Of a DNA stretch of 43,390 nucleotides, positions 31,772 to 39,207 are shown one piece after another (the stretch's first letter is position 1; each line of letters begins with the position of its first letter). Source of the stretch: a virus; the IMG/VR virus record IMGVR_UViG_3300000298_000017, positions 1 to 43,390 of that record; one strand, given 5' to 3'. Position numbers and translations under genes: made by a program. The notes below the pieces were generated by a model. The model made no database searches. It saw only the letters and a program-made list of their open reading frames with translations, and was not told the origin of the DNA.

Positions 31772-32890
31772 TTGTCAATGAAATGCTGCAAATGCAGGAA
31801 AGAGATTCCAGACGAAAGCAAATTTTGTTTGAAATGTGGCGCAAAACAAAACTTATTACAAAGCCGCCATACTAGGGGAAACGGGCAAGGCACCGCAATC
31901 AAGCGTGGAAGCACCTGGACGGCCATTTGGACCATAGAGGTATATCCAGATACCAAAGAGAGGAAAATCCATCAGAAACGCCGCTGGAAGGGCGGATTTA
32001 AGACTAAGACCGCAGCCCTCGCTTATGCCGCCAATCCCATACAGGAAGAAAAGGAATCTCCGACGCTCCGCACCTATTACACTGGGTGGGAAAAATCCGA
32101 TATGTGCGACTTGTCCAGATCTAAACAGACAGCATTTAAAATCGCATGGAGTAAAATGAACGAATTAGCCGGAAAGCGTATGGATGAGCTTACCATCAAT
32201 CAGATACAGTCCTGTGTAAGCAGAAACGCTCCTACATATTATCCGGCAAAAGATATGAAAACGCTGTTATCCCATCTATACAGACGGGCTGTGGCAGAGG
32301 GGACAGCTAGAACTAACCTGGCAGAATTTATCCGTCTGCCTCCGCTGGAGGAAAAAGAGCTTCAGCCCTTCACTGAAATTGAACTGCACAAGCTCTGGAC
32401 CGCTTATGGAACTGGTGACCGCATAATCGGGTTTGTCCTCCTGATGATCTACACTGGGATGATGCCGGGAGAGCTTTTGAAGTTTAAGGGTGATATGGTA
32501 GACTGGACAGCTCATGAGATTAGAGGCTGTGGCCTGAAAACAAAAAAGCGTAAAGAAACACCCATTGTATTTCCCGACCTGTTGGAGCCAGTATTGCGTA
32601 ATCTTATTGAAAGCAGTAAGTCCCATTCCGACTATGTAGTAGGGCTAAACAAAGATAAATTTTATAGTGAATATCATGCCTCACTTCAACGAGCGGGGGT
32701 CCGGGATCTACCTCCCTATTCATGTCGCCACACAACGGCAACCGCTCTCGCACTTGGAAATATCGCCCCAAGCGTGATACAAGAAGTCATGCGACACACA
32801 AAATTCTCTACGACACAACGCTATATCCACCCAGATAGCGCATCGGCTTTGGCTGCCGTAAACGCTTTGGGGCAGGGAAAAGAATGCTAA
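31772..32890 (+). CDS. int: Tyrosine integrase with an N-terminal zinc ribbon
   Basis: C-terminal catalytic region YSCRHTTATALALGNIAPSVIQEVMRHTKFSTTQRYIHP (R...HxxR...Y). N-terminal CCKCRKEIPDESKFCLKCG. attP lies immediately downstream. Confidence 0.9.
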   Translation: MSMKCCKCRKEIPDESKFCLKCGAKQNLLQSRHTRGNGQGTAIKRGSTWTAIWTIEVYPDTKERKIHQKRRWKGGFKTKTAALAYAANPIQEEKESPTLRTYYTGWEKSDMCDLSRSKQTAFKIAWSKMNELAGKRMDELTINQIQSCVSRNAPTYYPAKDMKTLLSHLYRRAVAEGTARTNLAEFIRLPPLEEKELQPFTEIELHKLWTAYGTGDRIIGFVLLMIYTGMMPGELLKFKGDMVDWTAHEIRGCGLKTKKRKETPIVFPDLLEPVLRNLIESSKSHSDYVVGLNKDKFYSEYHASLQRAGVRDLPPYSCRHTTATALALGNIAPSVIQEVMRHTKFSTTQRYIHPDSASALAAVNALGQGKEC

Positions 32891-32917
32891 CTATAATGCT
32901 AACTACGCATGAAATTT
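32885..32917 (+). repeat. Direct repeat copy 1 flanking the attP core (candidate arm-type integrase sites)
   Basis: TGCTAACTATAaTGCTAACTAcgcATGAAATTT. Overlaps the int stop codon. A near-identical copy is at 33125..33157. Confidence 0.7.
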
Positions 32918-33025: not shown

Positions 33026-33087
33026 TGGCGCAGAAGGGGGGATTCGAACCCCCGCACGGTTTTACCCGCCTACTCCCTTAGCAGGGG
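33026..33087 (-). other. attP core: 3' 62 nt of a tRNA-Ser(GCU)-like gene (not a complete tRNA)
   Basis: The minus strand reads CCCCTGCTAAGGGAG-TAGGCGGGTAAAACCGTGC-GGGGGTTCGAATCCCCC-CTTCTGC-G-CCA. These are anticodon loop CUGCUAA, a long variable arm, the T arm, the 3' acceptor strand and CCA. There is no D arm and no matching 5' acceptor strand. Confidence 0.75.
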
Positions 33088-33124
33088 CTGAAGTCTACCT
33101 GCGCCTCTAGTAAGCGCTGGTTTT

Positions 33125-33157
33125 TGCTAACTATATTGCTAACTATGATTGAAATTT
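33125..33157 (+). repeat. Direct repeat copy 2 flanking the attP core
   Basis: TGCTAACTATAtTGCTAACTAtgATTGAAATTT. Confidence 0.7.
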
Positions 33158-33210
33158 GGAGATATTTTTATAGACTTTTTGCTACCGAATAGATCGCTTT
33201 ATATATTAAA

Positions 33211-33241
33211 TCCGCCCCCAATTTTGAGGGCGGACTTTTTT
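33211..33241. terminator. Bidirectional-looking terminator between attP and the accessory cluster
   Basis: Stem TCCGCCC/GGGCGGA (33211-33217 and 33228-33234) followed by CTTTTTT on the plus strand. It lies directly after the stop of 33240..33746 on the minus strand. Confidence 0.6.
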
Positions 33242-33746
33242 ATCTTACGATGTACTTATAATACTTCGCCAGTTTATCGGGGCCAGCGTCCTTGTCGTCC
33301 AGGAATGCTTTCGCCATATCGACATAGAAATCGATCTTATCCCCGACCCCGAATTTTTTCGCCACCTTAACATAATCAGAGTAGATCATGTTAAGTGCAA
33401 CCCAAAATATATTTGGATCGTAGGTAAGAGAACGCTGTGACATCAACTGCTTTGCCTGCTCGATGGACCAATGCGGGCCTCTAGTTCCGTCCTCATTTTC
33501 CATTTTTTCAGTCCAGGCTTTTGCCATAGGGAGCGTGAAGCCTTGAGTCTCTTGACTATCCTCCTGCTGTGGGCTATCTTCTCCCCATTGGCAAAGGGCG
33601 TTGTATGCACTGTTGTAAACAGCGAGACATTCCGCCATTCTATCATCCATAGGAACGGCAGTACACTCGACAATTTTAAGTGTGAGCCAGTCCTTTGCGT
33701 TTTGACGTCCGGGCATAGCTCGGTCAAGAGTGGTTCTTGTGAGCAC
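33240..33746 (-). CDS. Hypothetical protein, 168 aa (conserved-looking, unknown function)
   Basis: GTG start after AGGGGGGGAGC. Contains AKAWTEKMENEDGTRGPHWSIEQAKQLM...NMIYSDYVKVAKKFGV...AKAFLDDKDAGPDKLAKYY. Confidence 0.6.
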   Translation of the reverse strand: MLTRTTLDRAMPGRQNAKDWLTLKIVECTAVPMDDRMAECLAVYNSAYNALCQWGEDSPQQEDSQETQGFTLPMAKAWTEKMENEDGTRGPHWSIEQAKQLMSQRSLTYDPNIFWVALNMIYSDYVKVAKKFGVGDKIDFYVDMAKAFLDDKDAGPDKLAKYYKYIVR

Positions 33747-33761
33747 AATGCTCCCCCCCTA

Positions 33762-34184
33762 TCAATCACGTTCCAACTGATTCATACAACGGCGGATTGC
33801 CTCACGCTCACGCTCACTGCCAGCTTTATCCATAAGCAGCTCCAGTTCTTCCATCATGTGCTCCTTGGCATCATGACGGCTATATCCTCCATCTCTGCTA
33901 TAGTCACCACGGTTGCTATAACCGTCCCGGCTATAGTGGCCTCGGACATAGTGCTTACCACGGTTAGCATAGCTGGAGCCACGATTATAGGAGCCTCGTC
34001 CCTCCCAGTCGCCCGCCTCAGAGTAGCCGCCGTCCTCCTCCAGAGCGCAGATTTTATCGATGTTCTTGATGGTATCAGTCAGCTTGTGGACGGTCTCCAG
34101 ATCACCAGCAGACATTTCAGGCTTGCGGGCAATCTCGTCCAGTTCGTCCTGGAGCTTATCCTTCAGCTCGTATAGTGCTTTCAT
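33762..34184 (-). CDS. Helical protein with a central Gly/Tyr/Arg/Ser/Asp low-complexity region
   Basis: 140 aa. Central stretch GGYSEAGDWEGRGSYNRGSSYANRGKHYVRGHYSRDGYSNRGDYSRDGGYSRHD is flanked by charged helices. Confidence 0.6.
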   Translation of the reverse strand: MKALYELKDKLQDELDEIARKPEMSAGDLETVHKLTDTIKNIDKICALEEDGGYSEAGDWEGRGSYNRGSSYANRGKHYVRGHYSRDGYSNRGDYSRDGGYSRHDAKEHMMEELELLMDKAGSEREREAIRRCMNQLERD

Positions 34185-34198
34185 AGTATCCTCTCCTT

Positions 34199-34639
34199 TC
34201 AGGCTACACGCTCAACAATGAAGTTACTGTTGGCTACTAAAATAGGCTGTGTACTGGTGTTTTTTGCGGCAACAGTGACACAGCAGCCACGGGGGACATC
34301 TACCACAGCGGAGACATAGATATTAAAGAAATTCTCCACAGCGGCAGGGGTAACAGTGGCGGTGGATGCGGTCAGCGCCTCACCATTGATGGAGATTGCC
34401 GCAGTGATGGCCTCCACGGTCCCACCGTCAGGGATGGCGATATTGGCGCCAAAGGAGACCTTGAACTTTGCCCGGCACTGGTTCGTAAGCCCACGAAGAG
34501 TCACCAGTCCAGCACCCTCCCGGTGTACAATACAAGGCTTGCTCGTGTTGGCCTCCTCAGTAAAGGGCACGTTCTGACCAGCGGCAACGGTTACGATTGC
34601 GCTATTTGTGTACTCGGCCAAAAAAATCATTCCTTTCAA
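34199..34639 (-). CDS. BclA C-terminal-domain-like (C1q/TNF-like jelly-roll) protein without a collagen region
   Basis: About 140 aa of beta-rich sequence ending ...PILVANSNFIVERVA, which resembles the Bacillus BclA end ...SASIIIEKVA as I recall it. The start codon is ambiguous (TTG/ATG cluster). Confidence 0.4.
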   Translation of the reverse strand: MKGMIFLAEYTNSAIVTVAAGQNVPFTEEANTSKPCIVHREGAGLVTLRGLTNQCRAKFKVSFGANIAIPDGGTVEAITAAISINGEALTASTATVTPAAVENFFNIYVSAVVDVPRGCCVTVAAKNTSTQPILVANSNFIVERVA

Positions 34640-34671
34640 AAAGATTAGCGGCGAGGCTATTGCCCCGCCGC
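34640..34671 (-). terminator. Intrinsic terminator after 34735..35493
   Basis: Minus-strand RNA GCGGCGGGGC-AAUA-GCCUCGCCGC (10 bp including one G-U) followed by UAAUCUUUUU. The G-U pair would be an A-C mismatch on the plus strand, which supports the minus orientation. Confidence 0.6.
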
Positions 34672-34734
34672 ATAGTTCAAAATCGGCACGGGGCCGAACA
34701 TTCCGGTCATGCCGGAAAGTTGATGTATTGGTTT

Positions 34735-35493
34735 TTAGCAGCAGCCGCCGCAGGGATTACACCCACAACCGGCATAAGGGTTGGGCACCTGATAGGCCGG
34801 AACAGGCATGGGGTTGATGCGGCGGATCAGTTCAGCGGTCTGGGCCTCCTGATTGGCGGTGAAGAAAGCGTTCTGCGCCGCCTGGGAAGCCTGGAACTTC
34901 AGACTCTGGTTTTCAGCCGTCAGAGTAGCAATCTTGTCCTGAGTCAAAAAGTCAAGGATCGCACGGCTGTTGGCGTTCTGGTTGTCGATGATGTCCCTGG
35001 TGCTGTTCTGGATGGTATTCCGGGTATCGCAAGCCTGGGTAGCCATGTCGTAGCGAACGCCCTGAATTGCCGCCTGGGTAGCCGCACCCTGGGTGGACAG
35101 GTTATAATTCACGCCGTCCACTGCCCGCTGGGTCTGGCAGCAGCAGTCCTGAAGCTGATAGCCCAGATTGCAGATAGCATTATCCACACCATGGAAGCCG
35201 TTGGTTACGGCGGAGAGGATACCGCTCTGGCCGGTCTGGAGACCGTTCAGCGCAAAGCCCTCGTTTACATCTGCCCTGGTGGCCCAGCCCTGACCGGAGG
35301 GAGAGCCCAGGCCATTGCCGGAGTTACCACCCCAGCCGCCGCCATAGCCGCCCCAACCGAACATACCGAAGATCAGGAACAGAATAATCCAGGAGGCCCA
35401 ATCGCCTCCCCAGCCGCCAAAACCGCCATTCCCGCCCTGATAGGCAGGCTGCACAGGCATGGTCATTACAGCGCCGTCAGAAGAAAGACTCAT
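34735..35493 (-). CDS. Gly-rich single-TM protein with a Gln/Asn/Thr-rich body and a Cys-rich C-terminus
   Basis: AAGGAG, 8 nt, then ATG at 35493. Contains GGNGGFGGWGGDWASWIILFLIFGMFGWGGYGGGWGGNSGNG, a central DCCCQ, and ends YAGCGCNPCGGCC. Confidence 0.6.
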   Translation of the reverse strand: MSLSSDGAVMTMPVQPAYQGGNGGFGGWGGDWASWIILFLIFGMFGWGGYGGGWGGNSGNGLGSPSGQGWATRADVNEGFALNGLQTGQSGILSAVTNGFHGVDNAICNLGYQLQDCCCQTQRAVDGVNYNLSTQGAATQAAIQGVRYDMATQACDTRNTIQNSTRDIIDNQNANSRAILDFLTQDKIATLTAENQSLKFQASQAAQNAFFTANQEAQTAELIRRINPMPVPAYQVPNPYAGCGCNPCGGCC

Positions 35494-35550
35494 TGTGTTA
35501 TCTCCTTTTTGATTTATTTTCAAAACCGTGGCCACGGATTTTGATTGAAG

Positions 35551-35772
35551 TTATTTACCAAACATTCCCCTCATCCCCTCAAACATCCCTGACATCTGCT
35601 GGGCTTGTTTCTGGACCTGGTTAAGCTGATCTTGGGAAATGCGGCCAGATGATACCATCTCTTGTATCATGGCGTTGGGGTCCTTCCCCTTCATCTGGTT
35701 CATGAACTGCTGGAATTGCTGCATCATATTAGGCTGACGATTGCCGCCCATAGCGTTGAAAAACGGATTCAT
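35551..35772 (-). CDS. Small Gln/Met-rich protein, 73 aa
   Basis: Product MNPFFNAMGGNRQPNMMQQFQQFMNQMKGKDPNAMIQEM...QQMSGMFEGMRGMFGK. ATGA-coupled upstream. Confidence 0.55.
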   Translation of the reverse strand: MNPFFNAMGGNRQPNMMQQFQQFMNQMKGKDPNAMIQEMVSSGRISQDQLNQVQKQAQQMSGMFEGMRGMFGK

Positions 35773-36236
35773 TCAGCATCCTCCTTCACAGATTTCTTTT
35801 TTACAGGGGTCGTCTCTTTGGAGCTCAGAGCGTCCACACGGGCCGCAAGAGCGTCCAGGTCATCCTTGGTGGCATAGCGGATAGAAGGCTCCTGCGTGGC
35901 TGCTGGGGCAGTCCTTGTGGTATTGCTGCGTTCTACCAGATCATAAATTTTGATGCTGGGCTTTCCAGAGGCATCCGCCTGCTTGAGATAAATAGTGGGG
36001 CTGTTGCTGTCCCATAAAGCAACGGCACTGTTGGGGGCCACCAGATATCCCATGGCCTCCTGCTCTCCATTCACCCAAACCATGGACTGCCCATTTTGCT
36101 GGGACTGTACGGGCGGCATTTGCGGTCCTTGCATGGGAGGTTGGAACTGCTGCCCACGGAGCTGGGCCAGTTGGTCCGGCATGGGCGGCTGGTAGTACAT
36201 GGGCTGATAGCCCGGATAGTAAGGTGTATAGGCCAT
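35769..36236 (-). CDS. Protein with a Pro/Gln/Tyr-rich N-terminus and a small globular domain
   Basis: Product MAYTPYYPGYQPMYYQPPMPDQLAQLRGQQFQPPMQGPQMPPVQSQQ, then MVWVNGEQEAMGYLVAPNSAVALWDSNSPTIYLKQADASGKPSIKIYDL. Confidence 0.6.
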   Translation of the reverse strand: MAYTPYYPGYQPMYYQPPMPDQLAQLRGQQFQPPMQGPQMPPVQSQQNGQSMVWVNGEQEAMGYLVAPNSAVALWDSNSPTIYLKQADASGKPSIKIYDLVERSNTTRTAPAATQEPSIRYATKDDLDALAARVDALSSKETTPVKKKSVKEDAE

Positions 36237-36242
36237 ATCACG

Positions 36243-36635
36243 TCATCCTTTCCAGTAGTACAAAACTTCCTTTTCCCCAGAATCCCATGTATCCAGAATC
36301 GTCCCGTCGATAATACAGACCACATGGGAATTCAGGCCGAGAAGGTGCACCCCGCTTCTATGGGTCCTGGCAAATTCATTCACCGTTGTGTGAGGCGGAG
36401 CCGGTCTTCGCTCCAGACCATACTGGCTCAGATAGCTCCTCCACACCTCGTTGGAGCTTGGCATATCCTTCAGGAGATACCCTTCCAGGCACAGGCCAAT
36501 ATAGGTGGTGTCCCAGTCCTGGCCCAACGCCGTGGAAATAGCTCTAACCGTGCAGTCTCCCACATTCCTGTTGTAAGGGTTTTCGTTGTGCCAGGAATAC
36601 CTCTCCGTTGTTCGCATGGCGGCTTTCCACCTCAT
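36243..36635 (-). CDS. Putative papain-fold Cys/His enzyme
   Basis: Contains NENPYNRNVGDCTVRAIS (candidate catalytic Cys) ... LNSHVVCIIDGTILDTWDS (candidate His/Asp). The start could be at 36635 or 36617. Confidence 0.4.
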   Translation of the reverse strand: MRWKAAMRTTERYSWHNENPYNRNVGDCTVRAISTALGQDWDTTYIGLCLEGYLLKDMPSSNEVWRSYLSQYGLERRPAPPHTTVNEFARTHRSGVHLLGLNSHVVCIIDGTILDTWDSGEKEVLYYWKG

Positions 36636-36747
36636 TCAGATACTTTTCCAAACCATAATCATCCCCCTGTGCCCGAAACCACATAATGGTTTCCCTGGCG
36701 CAATCGGGCCGGATGCCAGCGGCAATCAATCTCTCTACCGGGGTCAT
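36544..36747 (-). CDS. Small protein whose 3' third overlaps the next gene out of frame
   Basis: Product MTPVERLIAAGIRPDCARETIMWFRAQGDDYGLEKYLNEVE... Overlaps 36243..36635 by 74-92 nt. Confidence 0.4.
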   Translation of the reverse strand: MTPVERLIAAGIRPDCARETIMWFRAQGDDYGLEKYLNEVESRHANNGEVFLAQRKPLQQECGRLHG

Positions 36748-36845
36748 ATATCACACGTCCTTTGTATAAAAATAAGGAGGGCCGTGAGGAGGACTGCGAC
36801 GTGTACAGCCCTTGTTCCCCACGTCCTCCATGTCTATATTGTCAC

Positions 36846-36884
36846 ATAAAAATTCCCCGGCTGGGTACGGTCCCAGTCGGGGTT
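36846..36884 (-). terminator. Hairpin plus U-run after the sigma-like gene
   Basis: Arms at 36855-36865 and 36872-36882 (CCCCGxCTGGG/CCCAGxCGGGG, one non-Watson-Crick position). The minus strand then reads AATTTTTAT. Confidence 0.45.
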
Positions 36885-36893
36885 GTGTACGTT

Positions 36894-37145
36894 TTATGTA
36901 CGGTTTGTGTAGAGCTTGGCGGATACATTTTCCACCCGTTCCAAAATATGTTTGAGGTGGTCTCCCACAGTGGCCCTGCGCCATCCCAGCTCCGCCGCAA
37001 TATCCATTTGACACCATTTGTCAATAAGATATCGTCTGGCGATCAGTTCATCGTCCCGGTGGAGTGCGGCCTCGTGGATGGCCTCCTCTAGTTGAGAGCG
37101 CAAGAGCTTGTCAAGCGATTCCGGTAGCTTTACTCTTGCGCTCAT
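36894..37145 (-). CDS. Sigma-70 region-4-like HTH protein, 83 aa
   Basis: Contains DELIARRYLIDKWCQMDIAAELGWRRATVGDHLKHILERV. Lies 16 nt downstream of the endolysin gene. Confidence 0.5.
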   Translation of the reverse strand: MSARVKLPESLDKLLRSQLEEAIHEAALHRDDELIARRYLIDKWCQMDIAAELGWRRATVGDHLKHILERVENVSAKLYTNRT

Positions 37146-37161: not shown

Positions 37162-37929
37162 TTACTTCAACGCCGCAGCTCGTGCCATAACGGCACTTTC
37201 CTCACGAGTGACAAATGCCATAGGTCGGGTCCCATCTGTCAGGCCAAGCTCGTTGGCCTCTGCAAACAGCTTCGGCATACTGGCCGGCAGCTCCGCTCGC
37301 TCGGCCAGATAGCGGTCCATGTACTCCTTCCACTGCTCATAGGTCACAGTCTCATCCTCTCCTTCCATCCACCGGGCCACATCGGCCCTGAAATTGTCCA
37401 TGGTTTTGCCGAATTTAGGGAACCAGTGAAGGACATCCCCGTGGTTACTGGCGATCCCTCTGCGGTAGCCCTCCTGATGGCAGATTACCACTCCGTCAGC
37501 CAACGGGTCCAGGTTATACTCCTTGCAGAGATAGGCTGTCAGTTCCACGGCCTCCTGGTACACCGCCTTAAAATAGCTGGCATCCTCCAGGCCGTCCTCG
37601 CTGATTTCAAAGGAAATGTGGGTATCATTTGCACTGCCGTTCTTTCCTCGGCCACAGTGCCAGCCCCTCCAGTTCCAGGGCAGGGTCTGGACCGTACCCA
37701 CCGATCCGTCTGCAAAGAGGCCTACAAAGGCGTGGGCGCACTTTTCCAGTCCGGGCCTGTCCCAATCATTCCCGTACTGATTCCGACCAATTACATCATC
37801 TCCGGGCACATAGCGGGCCACAGAGGGGTTATTAGCCCCAGTCGAGTGTACCATTACCCCCTGTGGCTGGATGGTCCTCCCGGCCCTGTAACAGTCGTTC
37901 TTGGTCAAATACTGTTTTCGTAATCTCAT
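37162..37929 (-). CDS. Endolysin: N-acetylmuramoyl-L-alanine amidase (Amidase_2/PGRP type) with an SLH-like C-terminal module
   Basis: Contains QGVMVHSTGANNP...WHCGRGKNGSANDTHISFEI...VVICHQEGYRRGIASNHGDVLHW. C-terminal ELGLTDGTRPMAFVTREESAVMARAA resembles an S-layer-homology repeat. Confidence 0.8.
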   Translation of the reverse strand: MRLRKQYLTKNDCYRAGRTIQPQGVMVHSTGANNPSVARYVPGDDVIGRNQYGNDWDRPGLEKCAHAFVGLFADGSVGTVQTLPWNWRGWHCGRGKNGSANDTHISFEISEDGLEDASYFKAVYQEAVELTAYLCKEYNLDPLADGVVICHQEGYRRGIASNHGDVLHWFPKFGKTMDNFRADVARWMEGEDETVTYEQWKEYMDRYLAERAELPASMPKLFAEANELGLTDGTRPMAFVTREESAVMARAAALK

Positions 37930-37990: not shown

Positions 37991-38260
37991 ATGCATGATT
38001 ACAAATTGCTTTGCCACTTTTTGAGGCAGGCAGAAACTGCTTTCAGCCTATCAGTGGACACAAACCAGGAATTTTCTGCACTAGCAGACAAGTTCGAGTC
38101 CGGCAACGCCACAAATGAAGACCGGGAAATGGCCCTCAGAATCCTGACAAATGCCAGGGAGAACTTTTCCTCCATGCCGGACAGCGAGGAGAAAATGACT
38201 GGGATGTTAGAGACCGCCCTGATTATTCAACAGCTAAATATGGAGCTAAAGGCACCCTGA
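37991..38260 (+). CDS. Hypothetical protein, 89 aa, plus strand, inside the lysis cassette
   Basis: ATG after GGGAGTGATAAA. Followed directly by a terminator. Confidence 0.5.
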   Translation: MHDYKLLCHFLRQAETAFSLSVDTNQEFSALADKFESGNATNEDREMALRILTNARENFSSMPDSEEKMTGMLETALIIQQLNMELKAP

Positions 38261-38276
38261 TTGGGTGCTTTTTTAT
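38252..38276 (+). terminator. Intrinsic terminator
   Basis: GCACCC-tgatt-GGGTGC (38252-38268) followed by TTTTTTATT. Confidence 0.65.
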
Positions 38277-38569: not shown

Positions 38570-38830
38570 TTATTCCTTCATCTGCTTGATGGCCTGGTTG
38601 ACGCCAGTTGCCGCCAGACCGCTTACGATGCCCACGGCAACGGCGGTCAGCGGGTCCGTGGCCGGGAAATCCTGGAGGCCGGTATACAGCGCCGCCACGC
38701 CAAGAACACCGCCACACAGGCCCACGATAGCCGGGATGTACTTGTTATCCAGGCCGGACGATTTGACAATTAGTCCCACCAGATAACAGATGACGGTAAT
38801 GGCCGCCACACTCGCAATGCCAAAATCCAT
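38570..38830 (-). CDS. Holin
   Basis: GAGGGGGTGAAAAT followed by ATG at 38830. 86 aa with three hydrophobic segments (IASVAAITVICYLVGLIV, YIPAIVGLCGGVLGVAAL, LTAVAVGIVSGLAATGV) and a charged C-terminus. Confidence 0.65.
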   Translation of the reverse strand: MDFGIASVAAITVICYLVGLIVKSSGLDNKYIPAIVGLCGGVLGVAALYTGLQDFPATDPLTAVAVGIVSGLAATGVNQAIKQMKE

Positions 38831-38844
38831 ATTTTCACCCCCTC

Positions 38845-39207
38845 TCAAAGACCTATCTTGTCTAACAGAAAGGCCATAACCGCTGTAATAACCGCCGCAA
38901 TTACGGCCCAACTTATTTTGCCTTTCAGATCTTTCCAGGTTCGTCCAGGCTCTGCCTGAATGTCTGACAATCCCTTGGACAGTGTGCCCACTTTACCTGT
39001 CAGGTCCTCCAGCTTCTCGAGTATCGTTGTATACTGCTGGCCCTGCTCTGCACGGGCGATCTCAAGCTCCCGGATTCTGTTGAAAAACTCCTTGTGCGTC
39101 TGCCGGGACTGTTCCTTCCATTCGCTCATCTGCTTTTCCAGCATATTAGCTTTCTGGATGCCAAGGCAATCCCGCCGTGGGTCTAAGATACATTTTTCAT
39201 CTGCCAT
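38845..39207 (-). CDS. XhlA-like lysis-associated membrane protein
   Basis: 120 aa with a coiled-coil N-terminus and a C-terminal TM segment ISWAVIAAVITAVMAFLL. Lies directly upstream of the holin. Confidence 0.45.
   Translation of the reverse strand: MADEKCILDPRRDCLGIQKANMLEKQMSEWKEQSRQTHKEFFNRIRELEIARAEQGQQYTTILEKLEDLTGKVGTLSKGLSDIQAEPGRTWKDLKGKISWAVIAAVITAVMAFLLDKIGL

Follow-up and report, generated by a model that had tools for sequence, protein, structure and literature searches.

A strictly ordered gene cassette of gut phages between endolysin and attP, with a possible late, lysis-linked role

The DNA studied here is the viral record IMGVR_UViG_3300000298_000017, all 43,390 nucleotides (nt) of which were analysed (the window); it is a circularly permuted, temperate siphophage-like genome. 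Nine minus-strand open reading frames (ORFs) occupy positions 33240–37145, all 3′ of the Amidase_2 endolysin gene, and form a cassette whose gene order recurs in 161 loci. We propose that these late genes form a cassette that is widespread in gut phages and strict in its order, and that its products make up a late, lysis-linked, membrane-anchored intracellular complex, a reading that we favour tentatively and to which we give somewhat less than an even chance. We rate the cassette as a whole as lying outside the known kinds of system, with relatives at the level of domains (BclA_C/ExsF, papain-like, LuxR/GerE, DUF7841, RAGATH-31) and a function inferred from context. At least one defining feature is lacking for every known kind with which it was compared, be it BclA-type glycoprotein, C39 system, sigma factor, spanin, moron or known defence system. 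The cassette appears to be undescribed so far, and an earlier note, made from the letters of this DNA, likewise knew of no such module; no known system matches it as a whole.

Order and distribution of the cassette

From the endolysin gene onward, the nine genes are hth83, for a helix-turn-helix (HTH) protein; s67, for a 67-amino-acid (aa) protein; cys130, for a putative Cys peptidase or amidase; pqy155 (PQY), for a P/Q/Y-rich protein; qm73, for a small Q/M-rich protein; gly266 (GLY), for a single-pass membrane protein; bcl146 (BCL), for a predicted jelly-roll protein; gyrs140, for a G/Y/R/S-rich protein; and duf168, for a DUF7841 protein (Table 1). Iterated profiles recovered the order endolysin-HTH-s67-Cys peptidase-PQY-Q/M-GLY-BCL-G/Y/R/S-DUF7841-integrase, with the integrase gene on the opposite strand, across the 161 loci. 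Since each ORF has same-order homologues in other loci, all nine are real genes. The nine co-oriented minus-strand genes that the earlier note had placed between endolysin and attP are thereby confirmed, and the block is also present, collinear, in other prophages and Clostridia chromosomes, where the note had suggested looking for it.

Protein identity across loci ranges from ~30% to 99% and is unequal among the genes of one locus; because identities vary from gene to gene in this way, the cassette is mosaic yet collinear. Its universal core is a P/Q/Y-rich protein, a small M/Q-rich protein, GLY (160 of the 161 loci) and a ~140-aa beta protein. Several slots are filled by alternative families: a Cys-rich beta protein of ~134 aa (U1) stands in for BCL, qm73, carried by 102 loci, is replaced in 49 others by U2, an analogous protein of ~81 aa that is likewise M/Q-rich, the homologous U3 takes the place of hth83 (65 of the 161 loci) in 40 more, and U16/U0 replace the last two products. 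Profile-profile comparison found no relation between U1 and BCL, and U1 members matched nothing in Pfam. The architecture is thus better conserved than the sequences. In Bajarodcaudo virus 5, the core follows holin and peptidase genes and precedes replication genes.

Relatives of GLY were found in at least 596 IMG/VR stretches and in 100 cases in bacterial contigs of a one-genome-per-species set. The hosts are nearly all Clostridia (Oscillospiraceae, Lachnospiraceae, Acutalibacteraceae and others), with Anaerotruncus, Enterocloster, Blautia, Dorea, Ruminococcus, Agathobaculum and Butyricicoccus among the genera; exact or near-identical cassette proteins, including a near-identical qm73 in Dysosmobacter welbionis, occur in Flintibacter and in that species. 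All sources of cassette relatives are gut samples. A tblastn search of a phage collection found no GLY homologue in cultured phages; the 27 matching records are uncultured or metagenome-derived, and depositors had labelled the GLY matches, where they labelled them, "hypothetical protein" or "spike protein/glycoprotein". In one related prophage (L163 11394–13246, on a 110-kb ENA contig), the end of the cassette adjoins a 103-aa YqfD fragment followed by phoH-ybeY-era-recO, which suggests that this prophage integrated into or beside the sporulation gene yqfD.

Two members of the cassette extend to crAss-like phages. In phage cr1_1 (Suoliviridae), a gene labelled "spike protein/glycoprotein" encodes a full-length GLY homologue (hidden Markov model (HMM), E 6e-29) with the Gly-flanked transmembrane helix, the motifs DCCCTTQR and CPVPAY and a Cys-rich end; the preceding gene encodes a DUF7841 protein with a Tyr/Asp/Arg-rich tail (HMM, E 6e-30). 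A scan with this GLY homologue gave at least 594 relatives, mostly on ~100-kb contigs. The order in 80 crAss-like loci is holin, a 199-aa protein, DUF7841, GLY, a beta protein, two more genes and an L,D-transpeptidase-like gene. Such a Suoliviridae block is also found at 88.5–96 kb of MT774380, and a second crAss-like contig carries holin, DUF7841 and GLY. Profile-profile comparison of the crAss-like beta protein and its neighbours with all cassette families detected no relation.

The cassette is always co-oriented with the late genes and located at their end, and it adjoins the lysis genes in most Clostridia phages. We favour a late, lysis-linked role because of this position, at the end of the late genes and, in crAss-like phages, within the lysis block. 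The same location bears on an alternative that we consider unlikely, namely that the cassette is a virion accessory module. GLY would then be a shaft or an ejected membrane-active protein, the jelly roll a knob or lectin, and the low-complexity proteins and the peptidase would serve assembly and maturation, yielding side fibres, decoration or ejection proteins. The morphogenesis operon always has the cassette at its 3′ end; PQY, the small protein, GLY and U1 of Dulem virus 36 begin 10 nt past the receptor-binding protein gene, and in MT835477 cassette members lie among head genes. Moreover, viral TNF/C1q-like domains are mostly C-terminal knobs of tail fibres or collagen-like fibrils, contigs of uncultured sipho-, myo- and podoviruses encode BCL-like proteins that stand alone, and the cassette spans hosts and morphotypes while the samples are always from the gut. 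However, an HTH regulator, terminators and an RNA leader of its own would be rare for structural genes, the transmembrane helix of GLY is bona fide, with Trp belts around it and up to 10 Cys in the protein, and in most phages the cassette comes after, not before, the lysis genes. There is also no homologue in any cultured phage of the collection searched, hence none seen in a virion proteome.

Table 1. Positions of the lysis genes, the cassette with its control elements, and the attP side in the window
Feature	Position	Strand	Basis or remark
XhlA-like gene	38845-39207	-	phrog_937; downstream of tail genes
Holin gene	38570-38911	-	phrog_1129
86-aa ORF	between holin and endolysin	-	lysis-region gene
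Endolysin gene	37162-37929	-	Pfam Amidase_2, E 8e-15
hth83, 83-aa LuxR/GerE (sigma region 4-like) HTH protein	36894-37145	-	weak profiles and hhalign to U3
Terminator-like hairpin and U-run ending the endolysin-HTH unit	about 36846-36886	-	-19.4 kcal/mol, z = -4.0, then UUUUU
Conserved block TATG(T/C)GACAATATAGACAT, between terminator and RNA leader	36830-36848	-	near-invariance
RAGATH-31 RNA (Rfam RF03101), 5′ leader of the s67-to-GLY operon (candidate)	36776-36829	-	cmscan
U-tract UUAUUUUU after RAGATH-31	36767-36775	-	then s67 ribosome-binding site
s67, 67-aa protein	36544-36747	-	homologues in 45 loci
cys130, papain-like Cys-His-Asp protein, putative peptidase or amidase	36243-36617	-	phrog_3754
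pqy155 (PQY)	35769-36236	-	phrog_21718; 153/161 loci
qm73, 73-aa basic Q/M-rich protein	35551-35772	-	phrog_22984
gly266 (GLY), single-pass membrane protein	34735-35493	-	phrog_16490, E 1e-78
Internal terminator-like hairpin after GLY	about 34636-34673	-	-22.3 kcal/mol, z = -4.95
bcl146 (BCL), stand-alone TNF/C1q-like jelly roll (predicted), BclA_C/ExsF type	34199-34630	-	phrog_20016
gyrs140, G/Y/R/S-rich low-complexity centre between helical ends	33762-34184	-	phrog_28802; 98 loci
duf168, DUF7841 protein	33240-33746	-	Pfam PF25223, E 5.9e-32, 110.7 bits vs cut-off 25.2
Terminal hairpin of the cassette, bidirectional terminator-like	about 33205-33243	both	folding and U-run
32-bp direct repeats around the attP core	32886-32917 and 33126-33157	+	GCTAACTATA(A/T)TGCTAACTA(C/T)G..TGAAATTT
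attP core, 3′ part of a tRNA-Ser gene	~33029-33088	-	83% identity with annotated tRNA-Ser
Integrase gene	31772-32890	+	beyond the cassette, opposite strand

The membrane protein GLY and the other products

Among the nine products, GLY alone contains a transmembrane-like segment. Its start is probably at 35493, giving 252 aa, and it consists of an acidic N-terminus, a Gly/Trp-flanked transmembrane helix, a conserved helical domain, a Pro-rich linker and a Cys-rich tail. The helical domain carries an invariant CCC and is very strongly conserved across host phyla in the alignment, and 156 of 162 members have at least two Cys within the last 15 residues. In 44 homologues, the N-terminal flank of the helix averages 0.36 Lys+Arg and 2.9 Asp+Glu and the C-terminal flank 1.45 Lys+Arg, and this charge bias weakly favours a cytoplasmic C-terminal domain. 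GLY would be the Cys-rich membrane anchor of a complex. A comparison of GLY members with Pfam gave HAP1_N noise and, in 2 of 44 members, adenovirus protein VI at E 0.004, which we treat only as an analogy. A hydrophobic N-terminus like that of a signal peptide is absent from all nine products, and such products fit assembly inside the cell, as in spore coats. In Dulem virus 33 (L001 10906–11457), the Q/M gene and GLY are separated by an inserted gene on the other strand, whose annotation is endonuclease.

The organization of GLY resembles that of the lambda Rz/Rz1 spanins in its N-terminal transmembrane helix, long helical domain, conserved Cys, Pro-rich segment and location in lysis blocks. 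In contrast to spanins, it belongs to phages of Clostridia, which have no outer membrane, its C-terminal domain is predicted to be cytoplasmic, and crAss-like phages have a separate transmembrane/coiled-coil protein beside it, namely the 199-aa protein, whose hydrophobic N-terminus and coiled coil look i-spanin-like by eye. We rejected a spanin identity: inspection by eye revealed no lipoprotein partner, none of the nine N-termini is signal-like, and the hosts are Clostridia.

Upstream of GLY, roughly the last 74–92 nt of s67 also belong, in another frame, to the peptidase gene (36544–36617 in the window), an arrangement kept across 39 loci (median −92 nt); s67 has no family match in Pfam, PHROGs or NCBIfam. 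The start of cys130 is probably at 36617, giving 124 aa, and its residues D21, C22, H98 and D109 are invariant in 68 sequences. The AF2 model (pLDDT 94) places the Cys at a helix N-terminus, the His at the start of a strand and the Asp on a later strand, which predicts a papain-like fold. In Foldseek, the best matches are Josephin-2, the staphopains, the ComA C39 domain and UfSP, all of them papain-like but weak (E 0.1–1, TM 0.35–0.53). The C39, Josephin and UfSP Gly-Gly peptidases share this placement of the catalytic Cys at a helix N-terminus and of His/Asp on later strands; cys130 differs from them in that TM is about 0.5 and E at least 0.1, it matches nothing in Pfam or NCBIfam and no transporter domain accompanies it in the cassette, and a role as a cell-wall amidase is possible. 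An assignment as a C39 peptidase for bacteriocin leaders was discarded, there being no family profile match and no ABC exporter in the cassette. A bacteriocin/RiPP precursor with its C39 peptidase was rejected too: the cassette encodes neither a transporter nor a modification enzyme, and GLY, a membrane protein, is large and conserved.

The N-terminus of PQY is P/Q/Y-rich, its conserved core (WV.GE.EA..Y.V.P...) is rich in beta structure, and a coiled coil forms its C-terminus; pqy155 matches nothing in Pfam or the PDB, and the Pfam scan of PQY members returned only coiled-coil noise. The start of qm73 overlaps the pqy155 stop by 4 nt, and its product is basic (pI 10), with 19% Gln and 16% Met.

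For bcl146, the start is probably at 34630 or 34621 (140–143 aa), and the AF2 model (pLDDT 91.7) is all-beta, with ten strands, indicating a jelly-roll fold. Its top Foldseek matches in the PDB are ExsF, BxpB, BclA-CTD and F-BclA (E about 1e-7, TM 0.65–0.73), with phage fibre knobs, TNF ligands, C1q and the lectin BC2L-C further down. The BCL family comprises more than 7800 clusters at 90% identity, with a typical length of 140 aa, and the top BFVD matches of bcl146 are stand-alone 135–140-aa proteins of uncultured phages. Pfam BclA_C (PF18573) is matched by 5 of 28 BCL relatives (best E 5.3e-7), and not by bcl146 itself at E ≤ 1; a search of PDB sequences with the BCL profile found nothing. 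Relative to the exosporium proteins BclA-CTD and ExsF/BxpB (PDB 1WCK, 7R1M, 8D02, 9H3D), bcl146 has the same predicted jelly-roll fold, an ExsF-like size and no signal peptide; unlike them, it is phage-encoded, also in hosts described as non-sporulating, it shows ~10–17% identity, and it falls below the BclA_C profile. The protein is the globular domain alone, 140–146 aa, without collagen-like repeats in the alignment. Lacking an exosporium leader and a collagen-like GXX region, it was rejected as a BclA-type exosporium glycoprotein.

The DUF7841 family has 1465 representative clusters (50% identity) at E ≤ 1e-3. Most of its proteins are 200–390 aa long, with a long R/N/G/M/E/Y-rich low-complexity N-terminal part in which motifs such as RGREHYDNGRF and PMNRIGF recur, and the gyrs140 and duf168 proteins of the window look like a split version of such a longer protein. 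A literature search on DUF7841 found nothing relevant. Single-sequence scans of the nine products against Pfam, NCBIfam and PHROGs gave only DUF7841, unnamed PHROGs and weak HTH matches, and searches of PDB sequences with four single proteins and with the profiles of BCL, PQY and U1 gave nothing significant. Much of what the earlier note had read in these products nevertheless stood: the Gly-rich transmembrane protein with a Cys tail, the short ORF overlapping a Cys/His enzyme-like gene (invariant Asp-Cys...His...Asp), the BclA-C-terminal-like beta protein (a TNF-like jelly roll on the predicted model), the conserved-looking 168-aa protein, now DUF7841, and the odd amino-acid compositions, which are real.

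From these features the note had gone on to suggest lysogenic-conversion cargo that modifies the spore or cell surface. As a moron-like unit, the cassette would remodel the host cell or spore surface under a GerE-like regulator, which we regard as improbable. It does resemble morons in lying between the lysis genes and attP with terminators on both sides and a candidate promoter of its own, so that terminator, promoter-like element, genes and terminator follow each other in the classical moron layout. The predicted BCL fold is closest to ExsF/BxpB and BclA, relatives match BclA_C, the regulator is a stand-alone GerE/LuxR-type HTH protein, and the Cys-, Gly/Tyr- and Q-rich compositions are coat-like, with the lack of signal peptides fitting mother-cell assembly; most hosts are Clostridia, and one relative's prophage abuts a truncated yqfD. 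In contrast to variable moron cargo, however, the cassette is collinear in the 161 loci and across hundreds of phages, as counted above from IMG/VR and species genomes. Its G+C content (0.475–0.544 against ~0.51 elsewhere in the genome) is ordinary, and it is found in phages that do not look temperate, such as Dulem virus 36 (53.8 kb), whose 95 annotated features include its own replication enzymes and no integrase. BCL also has neither the collagen-like region nor the exosporium leader.

The hosts weigh further against a spore-surface module. Bacteroidetes are non-sporulating bacteria. GLY and DUF7841 lie inside the crAss-like lysis block, and Crassvirales infect Bacteroidetes (PMC10136315); the near-identical qm73 is found in D. 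welbionis, which is non-spore-forming by description (PMC13599835, PMC9558573). Because of these hosts, a spore-specific role cannot be the general function of the cassette. The earlier note had itself listed a non-sporulating host lineage, coupled with expression only late in lytic growth, among the findings that would count against its hypothesis. A YjcZ-like tiny-transmembrane sporulation protein was also considered and rejected, with no NCBIfam match, and a literature search on prophage-encoded coat or exosporium proteins found nothing relevant.

The lectin among the structural matches of bcl146 bears on yet another reading, that the cassette encodes lysis-released cargo in which a soluble, lectin-like jelly-roll trimer and the Cys/Tyr-rich proteins serve in the gut lumen as an adhesin, as a matrix, or as a factor directed at the animal host or at bacteria nearby. 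Toxins are freed by phage lysis in Stx phages and in TcdE-dependent toxin release, and the position of the cassette by the lysis genes resembles that of such toxins; TNF-like lectins such as BC2L-C and the shared gut origin of the samples would fit as well. Nevertheless, we think this reading quite improbable: conservation is highest in a membrane protein, the helical domain of GLY is so strongly conserved among phages of different host phyla as to suggest a constraint within the cell or on self-assembly and not a target outside it, and scans of Pfam and NCBIfam found no toxin-like domain.

Transcription units and the RNA leader

In the window, hth83 starts 16 nt past the endolysin stop (median 12 nt in related loci) and is the final gene of the lysis/late transcription unit. 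Its product matches NCBIfam TIGR02937 (sigma70-ECF region 4) weakly (E 0.012), as it does Pfam HTH families, and it aligns with its sister family U3 in profile-profile comparison (hhalign, 98.8%, E 8e-17); a U3 member in turn matches Pfam GerE (E 7.8e-5, 22.7 bits, cut-off 23.5), and faint precomputed Sigma70_r4 matches lie on a relative. The sigma region 4-like HTH protein of the earlier note is accordingly supported, as a probable LuxR/GerE or sigma region 4-type protein. A complete sigma factor was ruled out, the protein being 83 aa long with a region 4-like segment alone matching.

The endolysin-HTH unit ends in a terminator-like hairpin (the z-scores of all hairpins refer to 200 shuffles each). 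A hairpin followed by a T-run is present 3′ of the HTH gene in 50 of 56 unique related HTH-to-module gaps, and its stem covaries. Beyond it, the block TATG(T/C)GACAATATAGACAT is near-invariant across 17 distinct contexts of the subgroup with an RNA leader, the window counted in, and we take it from its sequence as a candidate extended −10 promoter (TGnGACAAT). A near-consensus TGnTATAAT occurs in 14 of the 56 gaps, against 8% of shuffles, and always 3′ of the terminator; it is often present at this place in loci with a U3-type HTH gene. By eye, no CATA-type −10 element (sporulation sigma E/K) was evident in the upstream block.

The block is followed by the RAGATH-31 RNA, which matches over its full length in the window with 71.6 bits (E 7e-14; gathering score 71.8); no Rfam family reaches its gathering score anywhere in the window. 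At the equivalent position in eight syntenic loci it scores 75–84 bits, above the gathering score. The RAGATH-31 pattern was found in 22 loci, always after the HTH gene and ~28 nt before s67, with compensatory changes at three pairs, and it folds with −30.2 kcal/mol (z = −4.4). By eye, its loop ACACGUC is complementary to GACGUGU of the s67 ribosome-binding site (RBS) region, and its 5′ arm is similar to the RBSs of hth83 and s67. A literature search on RAGATH-31 found nothing relevant. In a related phage, a FuFi-1 RNA (RF02986, 126 bits; L032 13527–13685, minus strand) is located past the cassette, at a distance of a few kb.

Downstream of GLY, the internal terminator-like hairpin has a 10-bp stem with nine G-C pairs followed by UAAUCUUUUU, and a consensus terminator scan also finds it. 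A hairpin with a T-run within 140 nt of the GLY stop is present in 92 of 113 unique loci, with compensatory stem variants. The RBS of bcl146 (GAAAGGA) abuts the U-run of this hairpin, which leaves no space for a promoter ahead of bcl146, and the last three genes therefore need read-through. For the same reason, the separate units into which the earlier note had divided the slot are not three independent operons. Conservation extends to the ~70 nt between the GLY stop and the terminator (34672–34735, minus strand), which contain small hairpins and a GCCGAT(T/A)(T/C)TGA-like motif; this GLY-to-BCL region matches no Rfam family and is possibly part of a regulatory RNA.

The hairpin at the end of the cassette folds with −22.1 kcal/mol (z = −5.9) on the minus strand, where the next letters are only UUUAAU, and with −14.9 kcal/mol (z = −3.6) on the plus strand. 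Because the U-run is better on the plus strand, this hairpin looks bidirectional. The three hairpin-plus-U elements of the earlier note are thus all strong (z −4.0 to −5.9), the third with the qualification that its better U-run is on the other strand.

Taken together, our analysis of these elements suggests that s67 to GLY may be a separately controlled operon with attenuation or processive antitermination, for which the RAGATH-31 leader is a candidate attenuator or antitermination element. Processive antitermination is known from lambda Q at PR′-tR′ and from HK022 put. The cassette shares with these systems a regulator gene before a promoter-like element, a structured leader with a U-tract and a downstream terminator to pass; unlike lambda Q, hth83 is of the LuxR/sigma region 4 type and not a Q homologue.

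This layout of an autonomous unit, with a membrane protein and accessory proteins at the end of a prophage, is also what a superinfection-exclusion or anti-phage defence system carried by the prophage might look like. We consider that very improbable, since eight of the nine proteins have no match in PADLOC-DB and pqy155 has only a 20-bit partial match to a cyclase model, the genes are present in integrase-less and crAss-like phages, and they are co-oriented and contiguous with the late genes. An embedded satellite or small-virus genome was rejected, as there are no replication or packaging genes.

On the far side of the cassette, ARAGORN found no full-length tRNA, and the attP core is seen again in other loci; from their sequence and place, the 32-bp repeats beside it are probably arm-type integrase binding sites. 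In the lysis region, an 89-aa plus-strand ORF (37991–38260) is placed between the genes on the holin side and the endolysin gene; it is antisense to the late operon, has its own terminator-like hairpin (38248–38272, plus strand) and matches no PHROG.

A possible lysis-linked membrane complex

In the mechanism that we tentatively propose, expression of the cassette would begin in the late lytic phase, in step with the lysis genes. RNA polymerase would get past the hairpin of the leader and the terminator behind GLY with the help of the HTH protein, of the RNA leader or of both, through attenuation or processive antitermination; this would set the expression of the GLY side high and that of the BCL side lower. 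In the membrane, the short acidic N-terminus of GLY would face outward and its large Cys-rich domain inward, to the cytoplasm, and PQY, the Q/M protein, the jelly-roll trimer, and the low-complexity and DUF7841 proteins would assemble on GLY at the membrane. The papain-like enzyme might mature one component, possibly at a Gly-Gly site, or serve as a second lytic enzyme. The complex would act at or around lysis, on the breakdown of envelope and membrane or on released material, and not on spores.

Accessory genes with such company are known: XhlA and XepA of PBSX belong to the lytic cassettes of Firmicutes. Like the present genes, they accompany holin and endolysin without a clear role, and their products are late and membrane-associated or without signal peptides, and an XhlA-like gene stands just upstream in the window; unlike them, the cassette has six to nine genes with regulatory elements of its own and shows no sequence or profile similarity.

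Several points weigh against a late, lysis-linked membrane complex. Its timing and function are inferred from position alone, and the topology of GLY depends on a weak charge bias. The lysis linkage is not universal, as the annotated holin and lysin of Dulem virus 36 are 17 kb from the cassette, and the near-consensus sigma-A-type −10 elements of some loci permit moron-like expression from the prophage. With crAss-like phages, only GLY and DUF7841 are demonstrably common, the beta proteins being without detectable homology; the Suoliviridae have never been cultured (PMC10136315), so that their Bacteroidetes host is a prediction.

We also considered a further-reaching version, which we think unlikely. 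In it, unrelated gut-phage lineages, the temperate siphophages of Clostridia and the crAss-like podophages of Bacteroidetes, would share a hitherto unrecognised late function built on GLY, as a Cys-rich coiled-coil protein in the membrane, and on DUF7841, to which the Clostridia phages would add a BclA_C-type trimer, Tyr/Gly/Gln-rich proteins and a maturation peptidase. In the dying cell, these proteins would form a cross-linkable proteinaceous layer or complex at the cytoplasmic membrane, and the RAGATH-31 leader with its sigma region 4-like partner would be the switch.

Of the blocks of functional dark matter that can be traced in gut phages, the cassette is one of the more widespread, and GLY and DUF7841 link phage lineages of different bacterial phyla, in or beside their lysis genes. 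For annotation, several unnamed PHROGs and one DUF can be treated as one co-inherited unit. The orphan motif RAGATH-31 gains a precise genetic context, as an operon leader beside a small HTH gene, which makes its function testable. Once resolved, the role of the cassette could expose a step late in infection, in lysis, release or the biology of the gut after lysis.

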